Shown: in pieces, positions 52,738 to 59,605 of the stretch
Numbering within the stretch: the stretch's first letter is position 1
Layout: each line of letters starts with the position of its first letter
The notes under the pieces: model-generated
The model's database searches: none
Told to the model about the DNA's origin: nothing
What the model saw: the letters and a program-made list of their open reading frames with translations, nothing else
Virus record (IMG/VR): IMGVR_UViG_3300029288_000007
Location: 1-64,000 of that record
DNA from: a virus
Lineage: Duplodnaviria > Caudoviricetes
Strand: one strand, 5' to 3'
DNA: 64,000 nt
Program-made: the position numbers and the translations under genes

Positions 52738-54198
52738 TTATTTTATAACTTCCCCAACAAATTTCTTAGAAAAATTCTTATCCCAATCCCGGTATTCATA
52801 AACAACATCTTGATTTTGGTCAACCCCAACCGGGTGCATCACGCCGGCAAAATAAATATAAGGACTCCGAGGATGATATGGGTCATTCCACTTGTTGCGC
52901 ATAGCATCGCCAAAGGTAAAATACTTGCGGACTCTTTTGGAATGCCAACCGCCACAATTGTACATTTCGACCGCCTTAACCTTATGGGCCCATTCTGGAG
53001 CCCAATCCAAATAATTTACTTGGCGACGAATGCCTCTGTCAAAATCCCTTTTCATTTCATAAACAACATTTGTCAATTGACGGCGACTCCAATGCCCAAA
53101 AATTGGGTCATCTGGCAAAATGCCGCAGCAACAACCGGTATCGTTGAATTCTTTGAAATGAGGGTCGCTACAAGCAAAAACCATTCCCAGTTTATGAGCA
53201 TAATCTCTGACTTTCGCGGTCATGTCAAATTTGTAATCTCGACTCCCTCGACGACATGCCTCAACAGACTTGCTCATCGCATTCCATTTGTCCCCAAACT
53301 TGACGTCCCCCATTGCCTTAAACATATGGTGATACATTATCTTCTGTCGCGTTGTTGGCGCTGATTCCAAAAAGATAAATTCAAAGCTTACTGCTTTTGC
53401 CCCGGCGTCAGCCGCCTTGTCCAACAACCTTTTCCATCCGTTGTTATAATCGGACAACCCGGGCAAGAAGGGCCGGAAACGCACGCTACAAGGGTGACCA
53501 GCCTTTGAATAAGCTTTCATTGCGGCAAAACGTTCCGTTGCGTTCGGCGCTCCGACATCAACCGATGTCAACAAATCGTCATCTGCAGAAATGATACTAA
53601 AAGCGAACCAAAATTTTTCAGGAGTCAAATGAAACAAATCTCGGTATTGTTTAAGCATCATCGTCCTTGCTCCTTTTGTTCCTACTCGAACAGGAACATT
53701 ATATTTCTGGAACAAAGGAATTGCCTTTAACAACCACCCACGATGACTTTCAATTTCGTCCAAAGGATCTCCAAGAGCGCCAAGTTGAACTGGACAACCT
53801 TGATTTAACAAAGGATACATTGTTTTCGCAATGCCTCCAAGTTCGCGATTCAAAAACTTCTCCAAATGGCCAATCTTCCATTCAGAATACAACGTCCCTT
53901 TTTCAAACAACTTCCTGATTTTATCAGGATTACGGTCAGGCGCTCGCATAAGGTTATTGGCAAAACAATAACTGCAACCGTAACTGCAACCTGAATGGCT
54001 GTCAATAGAAATGGGTAATGCGCAATCCATTGCGTCACTTGTAAAACGCACTCCGTTATAGTCGTCCGGCATTGGCATGTTCAAAATTTCTTCCCGGCGC
54101 TCATCAGAGACATAAGGAAGGCATACTCCCTTCTCGCACAATTCGGCCATCCTTGAAGGACAACCTTTACAAACATAATGCAATTCTTTATTATTCAT
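52738..54198 (-). CDS. Radical SAM protein (SPL/Rv2578c-like), paralogue 1
   Basis: CSYGCSYC, G.LGDP, RFRPFLPG, C-terminal CCCG; extra N-terminal Cys cluster. Confidence 0.9.
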   Translation of the reverse strand: MNNKELHYVCKGCPSRMAELCEKGVCLPYVSDERREEILNMPMPDDYNGVRFTSDAMDCALPISIDSHSGCSYGCSYCFANNLMRAPDRNPDKIRKLFEKGTLYSEWKIGHLEKFLNRELGGIAKTMYPLLNQGCPVQLGALGDPLDEIESHRGWLLKAIPLFQKYNVPVRVGTKGARTMMLKQYRDLFHLTPEKFWFAFSIISADDDLLTSVDVGAPNATERFAAMKAYSKAGHPCSVRFRPFLPGLSDYNNGWKRLLDKAADAGAKAVSFEFIFLESAPTTRQKIMYHHMFKAMGDVKFGDKWNAMSKSVEACRRGSRDYKFDMTAKVRDYAHKLGMVFACSDPHFKEFNDTGCCCGILPDDPIFGHWSRRQLTNVVYEMKRDFDRGIRRQVNYLDWAPEWAHKVKAVEMYNCGGWHSKRVRKYFTFGDAMRNKWNDPYHPRSPYIYFAGVMHPVGVDQNQDVVYEYRDWDKNFSKKFVGEVIK

Positions 54199-54452
54199 TT
54201 GTCTGCCTTTCTAATCAATTCCGCCAGCGCGACAGAATTCATATCTGGATGAGATTTAACATGAGGATTTGACTTTGACAACTTTGATAGAACCAAATCA
54301 TAATCCTTTTCATCGTCGAAATAAAAAATCAAAAACTTGCGCAACCCATTATCTGTTTTGCCTTGAATATCAGCAGGAAACGAAAAAAGGCCCGATTGCG
54401 CTTTCACATTTTTTTCGCCGTTGTCTATACCAGAATAATCATCTTTTGCCAT
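54195..54452 (-). CDS. Hypothetical protein in the radical SAM cassette
   Basis: 85 aa, GGAG SD, ATGA overlap. Confidence 0.65.
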   Translation of the reverse strand: MAKDDYSGIDNGEKNVKAQSGLFSFPADIQGKTDNGLRKFLIFYFDDEKDYDLVLSKLSKSNPHVKSHPDMNSVALAELIRKADK

Positions 54453-54468
54453 AACTCCTCCAAATTAT

Positions 54469-57733: not shown

Positions 57734-58569
57734 TAAGCACCTATATTCCAAAATAAAATCGGTTTTTTAAATCTAATATTATTATACTCCGTTTCCTTAT
57801 AATCCATTAAAAATTTATATGCCTTTAAATCGTAATATGGATTGCAAGGGAATGGAGCAAAAAAATCAACCTTTTGAGTGTATTCATAACCCAAATCAAC
57901 CATCTGGAAAAAATCATCATTTAAAACCGCGCCTGCCATTCCCAAAATTAAAGATTTCTTTTGTCTGATTTTCTTTGATGGACGACAAAGAACTCCAATC
58001 ACCTGCGCTTTTGATTTTGTCTTCAATACTCCTTTTAAAACTCCTGCCGCCATGGTCCCGCTGCCAACACACATTACAATGGTATTAAATTTTTTACATT
58101 TACTCAAAGCAAATTCAAGATAAACCTCTCTTATTGTTTCTATGAAAGGAAGGCCAAGAGGAAGCATTACTGCGCCCGGGCCGTATTGTTCTCTTAATAT
58201 ATTTTTTGATATGTGATAATTCACTTTTGCCATCCCGGCAGGGATATCAATCATCTTCGCGCCAAACTCAATCCACTTTGAACGATGTAAAGTCAAAACC
58301 TCATTCGGCGTTTTATAAATAGGATTAAAAATAACAGCAGTCATCCCCAATTGCTTTGCCATCCAAGCAACACCCCATCCAGCCATTGAGATACTGGTTT
58401 CAGTGTAACCAATTGTTTCCACGCCTTTTGCCTTTAACGCAAGCAAGCGCGAATATAATCCGCGAACCTTAGCAAAGGGAGGCCCGGGAGGAAAACAGGC
58501 TAAATCCTCTCTTTTGACGTAAATGTCGCCATACTTCTCAATTGGAGTATTGTTCTGTATCAATTCCAC
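57733..58569 (-). CDS. PLP-dependent fold-type II enzyme (ACC deaminase/D-Cys desulfhydrase-like)
   Basis: TPIE....YVKREDL......K.RG, VGSGTMAAG, NPYYDLKA, LFWNIG. Confidence 0.88.
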   Translation of the reverse strand: MELIQNNTPIEKYGDIYVKREDLACFPPGPPFAKVRGLYSRLLALKAKGVETIGYTETSISMAGWGVAWMAKQLGMTAVIFNPIYKTPNEVLTLHRSKWIEFGAKMIDIPAGMAKVNYHISKNILREQYGPGAVMLPLGLPFIETIREVYLEFALSKCKKFNTIVMCVGSGTMAAGVLKGVLKTKSKAQVIGVLCRPSKKIRQKKSLILGMAGAVLNDDFFQMVDLGYEYTQKVDFFAPFPCNPYYDLKAYKFLMDYKETEYNNIRFKKPILFWNIGA

Positions 58570-59605
58570 AATCCTTTAAAGAATAAACTTTTTCGTTTTT
58601 GCCTAAAATCGCAGCCAGGCCCTCATGATAATCTCCAACGCCATCCCAACAAAACTTCATAGTTTCCTCAAAAGAATTCCCCGCCAACAACATTCTTTTA
58701 ACGGTCATCACATTAAATGTCGTTGGATTAGGGACATCAATCCCGCAACAAGTATTTGTCTCTTCGCAATAACTTCCTGAATTAACAAAATCCGGGCAGC
58801 CCAAAATCACGCCGTTCTGTTTTGCAATATCAATCAATTTCTGTAAAATTGGCTTCCAGTGTTCATCCTGATTATAATGCCATATTTTTTCAATATCAAT
58901 CCCAATATTGTGCAACCGCTTAGCAACAAAATCATTAAAATGAAAATTGTAAGTATTGTAATTTTTTATTCCCCACGACTTCAATCTTTTAACGATATCC
59001 TCAAATTGCTTAATGGTATGATACCCAGGGATAAAAGGTTCTCCATTAACGGCGACAGAAACTCCCCTTGCCCTCAAATAACACAAAAAATCAATTCTTT
59101 CCTGAACAGGGGTTGTTCTGGTGCGTTCCAAGATTTCCCAATCATTCTCCGCGCCGGGAGAAATTATCGGTTGAACAAAAATCAAATGTTTATTTTCAAT
59201 AATAAAATCTCTGTGTGGAATCAAATTCTCGGTGAACATTGTTTGGATTAAAAAAGACCAATTCAAACCAACAAGAATTTCCAAAACCCGGGCTGATACT
59301 TTATGCTCAAGTTCTGCTGGTTGGAATGGGTCTGCCTTATTCCCAAAACGGATTGTTTTCTTCTGTCTCAAAGCCCAAGACAATGGCGACTTCGGCTCTT
59401 TGTTTTTTAAACCATTGATTAACGTTCTTTCAAAATTCTCAACGTCCAATGGGCGCAAATCTTTCCCCCAAACATGATTTAATCGTCTCAAATAACAATG
59501 ATGACAATTCGCTTGACAATTCCAATAACTGTCAAGAGAAAGACTCAAAGGACAATAAAGAGAGTCTCCGCGAATAGTTAAACCATTTTGAAGATTTTTA
59601 CTCAA
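58538..59605 (-). CDS. Radical SAM protein (SPL/Rv2578c-like), paralogue 3
   Basis: CQANCHHC, G.KADPFQPAE, EPFIPG, CCG; TTG start placed downstream of the hairpin. Confidence 0.9.
   Translation of the reverse strand: MSKNLQNGLTIRGDSLYCPLSLSLDSYWNCQANCHHCYLRRLNHVWGKDLRPLDVENFERTLINGLKNKEPKSPLSWALRQKKTIRFGNKADPFQPAELEHKVSARVLEILVGLNWSFLIQTMFTENLIPHRDFIIENKHLIFVQPIISPGAENDWEILERTRTTPVQERIDFLCYLRARGVSVAVNGEPFIPGYHTIKQFEDIVKRLKSWGIKNYNTYNFHFNDFVAKRLHNIGIDIEKIWHYNQDEHWKPILQKLIDIAKQNGVILGCPDFVNSGSYCEETNTCCGIDVPNPTTFNVMTVKRMLLAGNSFEETMKFCWDGVGDYHEGLAAILGKNEKVYSLKDCGIDTEQYSN

Follow-up and report, generated by a model that had tools for sequence, protein, structure and literature searches.

Two separable enzyme modules with three radical SAM proteins in the replisome region of an uncultured phage: a predicted kinase- and ADDT-free modification of thymine

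The stretch 52738–59605 of an uncultured tailed phage encodes three radical S-adenosylmethionine (SAM) proteins (rSAM-A, rSAM-B and rSAM-C), a pyridoxal phosphate (PLP) enzyme and a DUF2156-like transferase in the midst of the replisome genes. The sequence analysed (the window, 64,000 nucleotides) represents bases 1–64000 of a complete 91.7-kb genome with terminal repeats. Comparison of related loci revealed that the stretch holds two separable enzyme modules rather than one triple-rSAM set. Module 1 is built of rSAM-B, rSAM-C, the DUF2156-like protein, a second clamp-fold protein and a basic 43-aa micro-ORF; module 2 consists of rSAM-A and s85, an isolated ParB-like C-terminal domain. Both modules most likely act after replication on ordinary DNA bases, the C5-methyl group of thymine being the most likely target. 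We assign a probability of about 0.68 to an amino-acid-type modification of thymine that dispenses with kinase and ADDT, accompanied by a separate module 2. Its parts differ in strength: that the modules modify DNA bases is very probable, and that thymine is the modified base is probable. Gene content, folds, orthologies, co-occurrence and exclusions were established directly.

Module 1 is conserved independently of rSAM-A and the PLP enzyme

A search with rSAM-C yielded 581 homologues, from which 129 distinct loci were taken, 63 of them spanning the whole interval. rSAM-B, the second clamp and the DUF2156-like protein were present in 63/63 spanning loci, as was rSAM-C by selection. The PLP enzyme occurred in 38/63 and rSAM-A in only 4/63. 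The first-pass annotation had combined the three radical SAM proteins and the PLP enzyme in a single pathway. These counts, together with the occurrence of rSAM-A in loci without rSAM-B and rSAM-C, speak against such a unit and remove the PLP enzyme from the core. The features of the region are as follows (lengths in amino acids, aa; ORF, open reading frame; SPL, spore photoproduct lyase).

58538–59605, minus strand: rSAM-C, SPL-clade radical SAM protein, module 1 core; the longest ORF reaches 59665
57733–58569, minus strand: fold-type II PLP enzyme, M6 gp52 orthologue, accessory (38/63 loci)
56333–57751, minus strand: rSAM-B, SPL-clade radical SAM protein, module 1 core
56091–56336, minus strand: Cys-rich ORF of 81 aa, zinc-finger-like, limited to 2 loci and outside the conserved module
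55397–56107, minus strand: second clamp-fold protein, 236 aa, modelled as a two-domain PCNA/9-1-1/gp45-type fold, module 1 core
55220–55351, minus strand: 43-aa basic micro-ORF starting with MGGKSRK, GGAGG ribosome binding site, near-invariant in module 1
54469–55230, minus strand: stand-alone DUF2156/LPG-synthase-C-like protein with an aminoacyl-tRNA transferase fold, module 1 core
54195–54452, minus strand: s85, isolated ParB-like C-terminal domain (hidden Markov model (HMM) E 1.2e-8), module 2
52738–54198, minus strand: rSAM-A, SPL-fold radical SAM protein of a ParB-linked family, module 2
60366–61889: helicase, flank
59689–60267, minus strand: K/P-rich protein flanking the slot, part of the replisome backbone
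51666–52709, minus strand: replicative beta-type clamp, flank (TIGR00663, E 0.002)
48401–51655, minus strand: DnaE polymerase fused to a C-terminal uracil-DNA glycosylase (UDG) domain, flank

All cassette ORFs lie on the minus strand. Their location between clamp and helicase is as initially described, and the cassette end at 59605 was supported by the probable TTG start codon of rSAM-C at this position with GAGGAA upstream. The order of transcription is helicase, K/P-rich gene, rSAM-C, PLP enzyme, rSAM-B, 81-aa ORF, 236-aa ORF, micro-ORF, DUF2156-like ORF, s85 (85 aa), rSAM-A, beta-type clamp and DnaE-UDG. The K/P-rich ORF was considered as a module component and rejected, as it is kept also in sister phages with a 7-deazaguanine set. 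A separate Logan contig from the likely source sample showed 0 differences to window positions 48000–59937.

One of the four small ORFs noted at first, the 236-aa ORF, proved to encode a larger element of module 1. Its top fold matches were 9-1-1-like clamps, and the model (pLDDT 87.7) gave a Foldseek E of 3e-8 and a VIA Z of 15.0 (rmsd 3.6, 209 aligned). The model indicates a two-domain PCNA/9-1-1-type clamp fold and suggests a second clamp dedicated to module 1. This clamp and the ParB-domain partner of rSAM-A had been overlooked in the initial inventory, which was correct with respect to the PLP enzyme and the DUF2156 fold. The 43-aa micro-ORF was found in 66 of 69 module 1 loci.

The DUF2156-like protein gave only a weak Pfam match (E 0.006, below cut-off). 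Its family profile matched 2HQY (E 5.6e-6), and its Atlas model fitted LPG_synthase_C at a TM score of 0.82. R192, K238 and P243 are invariant in the family and may correspond to residues of aaPGS, among them the catalytic Arg and the C-terminal FKxK Lys. The characterised DUF2156 enzymes are known to acylate hydroxyl groups. Complete module 1 genomes contain almost no tRNA genes.

Module 1 and DNA modification sets replace each other

Sister-phage loci were fetched by the helicase alone and yielded 44 classified clusters. Module 1 was present in 11 clusters, QueD/QueE/FolE/QueC genes plus a TGT-like gene in 17, TAGT in 2 and an rSAM-A-family gene in 2. The remainder contained only DNA methyltransferases (6) or nothing recognised (6). 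The alternative sets lie within the helicase block or immediately behind it, and module 1 and the 7-deazaguanine set never occurred together among these clusters. Because the sets replace each other, the helicase-to-clamp interval can be regarded as a DNA modification slot. This exchange is the strongest argument for DNA as substrate.

The polymerase-UDG fusion is reminiscent of phages with T-modified genomes (PMC13697223). It carries little weight, because it is found in the deazaguanine sister phages as well. Other relatives carry a split UDG-exonuclease and PolA in place of DnaE-UDG, pointing to swaps of the polymerase family within a conserved replisome block. Four loci (L370, L371, L372 and L381) combine the 7-deazaguanine set with an extra radical SAM protein of ~455 aa and a ~330-aa protein, possibly for an undescribed 7-deazaguanine derivative.

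Two known tailoring enzymes of thymine adducts alternate in a variable slot

The PLP enzyme belongs to PF00291 (E 1e-14) and aligned with M6 gp52 over its full length (37% identity, E 2e-44), K34 coinciding with the aldimine lysine of the gp52 K-I-R-G motif. All 66 matches in the phage database were full length, and the 40 listed were M6-like phages; a single-sequence scan with the PLP enzyme gave no match. The alignments identify it as a true orthologue of M6 gp52, a decarboxylase of C-alpha-glycinylthymine in DNA (PMC8989533).

The position of the PLP gene is variable in content. It adjoins rSAM-C or lies between rSAM-C and rSAM-B, and harbors either the PLP enzyme, an FAD oxidoreductase plus aldo-keto reductase, or methyltransferase folds with or without a reductase. 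CmoA-like and amidoligase genes are rarer. The FAD enzymes showed 26–32% identity to PaMx11 gp47 (E 1e-28 to 4e-42). All 20 phage matches of these enzymes belonged to the PaMx11-like set or its close vicinity. PaMx11 gp47 is an N-alpha-glycinylthymine oxidase (PMC11472151). In 4/4 loci the FAD enzyme was paired with the aldo-keto reductase, which fits a primary-amine substrate, for instance a primary amino acid attached to the base. The two enzymes known to tailor amino-acid adducts of thymine in alternative ways thus swap in this slot. Together with the exchange against 7-deazaguanine genes, they favor a DNA function and a new hypermodification route as proposed by the first-pass annotation, though not its grouping of all three radical SAM proteins in one pathway. 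A truncated locus (L386:12096–14150) contains a gp52-like PLP gene with a divergent DUF2156-like gene and a methyltransferase gene.

The starter enzymes of known pathways are missing

To our knowledge, all characterised amino-acid hypermodifications of thymine start from 5-hydroxymethyluracil (5-hmU), provided by a dUMP hydroxymethylase or by O2-dependent TET/JBP enzymes, and proceed via kinase and ADDT. ADDT (PF18724/gp51) gave no match at E<=1 in the complete 91.7-kb genome. A tblastn search with gp54 and two kinase HMMs detected no gp54-type 5-hmU kinase in the genome, although very divergent kinases could escape. dUMP hydroxymethylase, TET/JBP (PF12851), TAGT and gp58 homologues were not found in the complete genome; positive controls were detected for the first two. 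The absence of kinase, ADDT and dUMP hydroxymethylase, at first noted for the window, thus extends to the whole genome. Ten near-complete relatives contained no ADDT, kinase, TAGT, TET or dUMP hydroxymethylase, the exceptions being a single ordinary ThyA and weak GT matches. By homology, this phage lineage appears to keep late thymine-adduct enzymes without the early ones.

The M6 pathway to 5-(2-aminoethyl)deoxyuridine (5-NedU) comprises gp51 (ADDT), gp52, gp53, gp54 (the 5-hmU DNA kinase 5-HMUDK) and gp58 (PMC8989533). The window resembles it in the gp52 orthologue, in SPL-clade radical SAM proteins with extra cysteines and in the location among replication genes. In contrast, the complete genome has no homologue of gp51, gp54 or gp58 and no gp53 orthologue; in their place stand two core radical SAM proteins, the DUF2156-type transferase and the clamp dedicated to module 1. 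In the PaMx11 pathway to 5-acetylaminomethyl-deoxyuridine (5-AcNmdU; gp46, gp47 FAD oxidase and gp48 acetyltransferase; PMC8989533, PMC11472151), gp47 takes the place of gp52, a swap repeated in the slot of the relatives. Their gp47 orthologues are accompanied by an aldo-keto reductase rather than an acetyltransferase, and both radical SAM proteins are kept; the genome studied here lacks a gp47 orthologue.

rSAM-B and rSAM-C are probable paralogues of the rSAM-A family

All three radical SAM proteins contain CxxxCxxC and matched PA0069/Rv2578c/SPL-type models below cut-off. The curated SPL models TIGR04070 and TIGR03886 gave 12.9 and 17.5 bits, far from the required 400 and 437.55 bits. Pairwise identity is only 22–24%. 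Three extra cysteines, one upstream and two in a C-terminal CC, are 100% conserved within each family (rSAM-A: C59, C357, C358; rSAM-B: C80, C367, C368; rSAM-C: C38, C306, C307), which substantiates the motifs initially seen. The rSAM-A model (pLDDT 93.4) was most similar to SPL (4FHC; Z 20.5, rmsd 3.4, 281 aligned), the closest solved fold, followed by a fold at Z 16.1. It differs from SPL in its low identity (14%), its C-terminal extension and the three extra invariant cysteines.

Comparison of rSAM-A, rSAM-B and rSAM-C with M6 gp53 by hhalign (E 1e-10 to 1e-13) placed none nearer than the others, indicating homology and not orthology. A quick tree, with long branches and an unresolved root, separated A, B, C and gp53 into four clades. 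A single BLAST match (E 1.5e-6) had suggested rSAM-C as gp53 orthologue and was overturned by these profile and tree tests. rSAM-B and rSAM-C scored nearer to the rSAM-A family than to gp53, rSAM-B being nearer to that family than rSAM-C. Profile scores thus suggest that both are paralogues of the ParB-linked rSAM-A family. Insertions, probably inteins or homing endonucleases, split rSAM-A and rSAM-B in several loci (L003:16067–18670; L051, L047, L063 and L071).

Module 2 belongs to a family that excludes TET/JBP

In sister phages (L170, L171, L172, L174 and L197), s85 and rSAM-A form a pair without rSAM-B, rSAM-C, second clamp or DUF2156. s85 matched the C-terminus of a ParB_N protein encoded upstream of an rSAM-A homologue. 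A full ParB is present in 59/70 other A-family loci; the window has the C-terminal domain only. What appears to be new here is a third radical SAM protein of the ParB-linked family with its partner reduced to this domain and inserted in the replisome.

Genes for ParB and terminase lie next to the wider family (331 IMG/VR relatives), TAGT, ADDT, P-loop kinases and GNATs being frequent further neighbors; in three loci an A-family gene lies beside gp52 and gp53 themselves. Context of ParB, kinase, AADT and GATase is that of ParB-dependent thymine dioxygenases (PMC13229309). With these enzymes (5mYOX clade C1) the A family, mainly through its distant subclade, has the neighbors ParB, kinase, AADT, GATase, TAGT and terminase in common, and it excludes TET/JBP. 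It differs by its radical SAM/Fe-S instead of Fe(II)/2-oxoglutarate fold, by the isolated ParB domain in the window and by an activity that is predicted.

Exclusion was tested in 78 ADDT loci from a search seeded with A-family loci, TET/JBP being confirmed by Pfam. TET/JBP was present in 49, the rSAM-A family in 18, a dUMP-hydroxymethylase-like gene in 4 and none of them in 7 mostly truncated loci, with an overlap of 0 (Fisher p 1.6e-10, uncorrected for kinship; 17/15/3/5 after clustering at 70%). On whole A-family contigs, Tet_JBP was found in 0/50, with a positive control detected, and PF00303 in 1/50. As ADDT needs phosphorylated 5-hmU and the A family excludes TET/JBP and dUMP hydroxymethylase, we predict the family to be an oxygen-independent source of 5-hmU. 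It may be an O2-independent activator or hydroxylase of the thymine methyl group which replaces O2-dependent hydroxylases. A TAGT-seeded test (13/18 with rSAM-A, 0 with TET, 5 with neither) was discarded as independent support because it mostly returned its own seed loci.

Two arrangements of A-family genes were observed in addition. In L380:15915–21506, a replisome contains an intein-split A-family gene and, after it, genes for a probable inositol-phosphate-synthase-like protein, a methyltransferase, ADDT and a kinase. In L210, L211, L219, L240 and L244, an A-family gene, ParB and TAGT occur with choline-kinase-like and cytidylyltransferase genes, possibly for a phosphocholine-type decoration of 5-hmU.

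Proposed route and alternatives

From these data we infer the substrate and every chemical step of the following route. rSAM-B, tethered by the clamp where the A family would use ParB, might abstract hydrogen from the thymine methyl group, and an auxiliary Fe-S cluster bound by its three extra cysteines would oxidise the radical to give 5-hmU. The DUF2156 protein would then O-aminoacylate 5-hmU from host aminoacyl-tRNA, probably with Gly. The allylic ester would rearrange to an isomeric N-alpha-linked adduct, so that acylation stands in for kinase and ADDT. rSAM-C might convert this adduct into a C-alpha-linked amino acid, which the gp52 orthologue would decarboxylate to a 5-(2-aminoethyl)uracil-like base; in relatives, oxidation and reduction (gp47 orthologue and aldo-keto reductase) or methylation would take its place. 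Module 2 may act as an independent O2-free thymine hydroxylase. A precedent is Mom of phage Mu, which glycylates DNA in a tRNA-dependent reaction that includes a rearrangement on the base (PMC13219725). Mom shares the GNAT-superfamily fold with the DUF2156-like protein and shows that charged tRNA can serve as donor to DNA. Mom works alone and on adenine N6, whereas the DUF2156/LPG-synthase-like protein always occurs with two radical SAM proteins and a clamp.

That phages of anaerobes combine O2-free hydroxylation of thymine by rSAM-A with ParB and by clamp-tethered rSAM-B with, in module 1, tRNA-dependent O-aminoacylation of 5-hmU on a dedicated clamp is conceivable at well under even odds, and the exact route and order of steps are slightly more tentative still. 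If correct, TET/JBP would have an oxygen-free analogue, tRNA-dependent modification of DNA would be known from a second fold, and a modification machine would possess a clamp of its own; this would be relevant to the counter-defence of phages in anoxic habitats and to tools for labelling DNA. The modules should work on normal DNA, and the lineage of uncultured phages carrying them is widespread. Amino-acid hypermodification of phage DNA is already known as a kind; a literature search found no paper on module 1 or module 2 and none describing this route.

Several observations weigh against the proposed thymine route. As none of the three radical SAM proteins is nearer to gp53, the assignment of rSAM-C as isomerase follows from need and not from homology. 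M6 gp53, too, has extra cysteines and two clusters, yet is an isomerase (PMC8989533). An aminoacyl ester has no free carboxylate, and decarboxylation would therefore require the postulated rearrangement. If rSAM-B is a hydroxylase, this genome would seem to have no need of rSAM-A. No tailoring enzyme was recognised in about 12/63 loci, 25/63 lack the PLP enzyme, and in L408:7026–7901 a gp52-like PLP gene occupies the slot without rSAM-B and rSAM-C. The ADDT loci were collected starting from A-family loci, and those related to each other do not count as independent cases. TAGT/ADDT neighbors were found in 0/7 loci of the window's own A subclade, 2/23 of its sister group and 38/47 of distant members, so that the product of rSAM-A itself may be bare 5-hmU, a feed for module 1 or something else. 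Finally, no cultured phage encodes clear relatives of rSAM-A, rSAM-B or rSAM-C. Restriction-site avoidance, tried as a test for protection, was neutral because M6, known to be T-modified, also avoids T-containing palindromes; GATC occurs at 0.11 of expectation in the whole genome, and CCGCGG, CGGCCG and GGGCCC are nearly absent.

Direct coupling of a thymine-methyl radical to an amino-acid C or N by a heterodimer of rSAM-B and rSAM-C, a reversal of SPL chemistry without a 5-hmU intermediate, is a serious alternative, if on balance an improbable one, and overlaps with the proposed route as a variant. The invariable pairing of the two paralogues (63/63), the SPL fold and the absence of any known hmU user are consistent with it. 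However, it leaves the O-acyl-transferase fold without a clear role, and the A family needs only one radical SAM subunit to take the place of TET.

N-aminoacylation of an exocyclic amine (N6-A, N4-C or N2-G) by the DUF2156 protein in the manner of Mom (PMC13219725), followed by rearrangement or cross-linking by the B/C pair, is unlikely. Guanine is modified from the same slot in sister phages, and nearly all complete module 1 genomes are without a known hmU source, in line with such a reaction. On the other hand, gp52 and gp47, the characterised orthologues of two swappable tailoring enzymes, act on thymine-methyl adducts; rSAM-B and rSAM-C are nearer to the A family, whose occurrence follows the pattern of thymine oxidases, than to gp53; and the preference of DUF2156 enzymes for hydroxyls is unfavorable.

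A substrate other than DNA (lipid, host tRNA, virion glycan or, RiPP-like, the 43-aa micro-peptide) is very unlikely. DUF2156 relatives acylate lipids, the invariant small ORF adjoins the radical SAM genes and a glycan cluster of ~12 kb is present at 15095–27385; but the DUF2156 protein has no membrane flippase domain, the cluster is 25 kb away, tRNA genes are scarce, and DNA is favored by the clamp fold, by the location in the replisome, by the exchange of gene sets in the slot and by orthology to gp52 and gp47, both of which act on DNA. A repair complex of SPL-like lyases on a checkpoint-like clamp is also very unlikely: the SPL fold, the 9-1-1-like matches, the DnaE-UDG fusion and the JGI label 'DNA repair photolyase' fit, but SPL models score far under cut-off, M6 gp53 bears the same misleading label, and the invariant transferase, the gp52/gp47 orthologues and the 7-deazaguanine exclusion would be left unexplained.

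Other features of the window

A landfill metagenome was the best public match for the window and is probably its source. Short identical pieces also occurred in one wastewater and one groundwater run, and no RNA dataset was among the listed public records matching the sequence. The sugar cluster (minus strand) lies between terminase and portal. Pfam assigned a WbmS-like deacetylase, FemAB/GNAT and Gfo/Idh/MocA proteins; two NAD epimerases, a DegT aminotransferase, a hexapeptide acyltransferase and a UDP-sugar dehydrogenase-like gene were recognised by sequence appearance. Together with a GT2 gene (1209–2492, minus strand) near the probable major capsid gene, the cluster may serve virion glycosylation. 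The region 6014–13607 (minus strand) encodes a MuF-like head protein of 1020 aa with a long C-terminal extension and a Nudix-like motif seen by eye; the next ORF (1500 aa) gave no Pfam match. Both proteins may be effectors that are injected to act against the bacterial host. A DUF7178 protein (30221–30892, minus strand) is encoded beside the terminase, and one related contig has a DUF7178 gene after the module.

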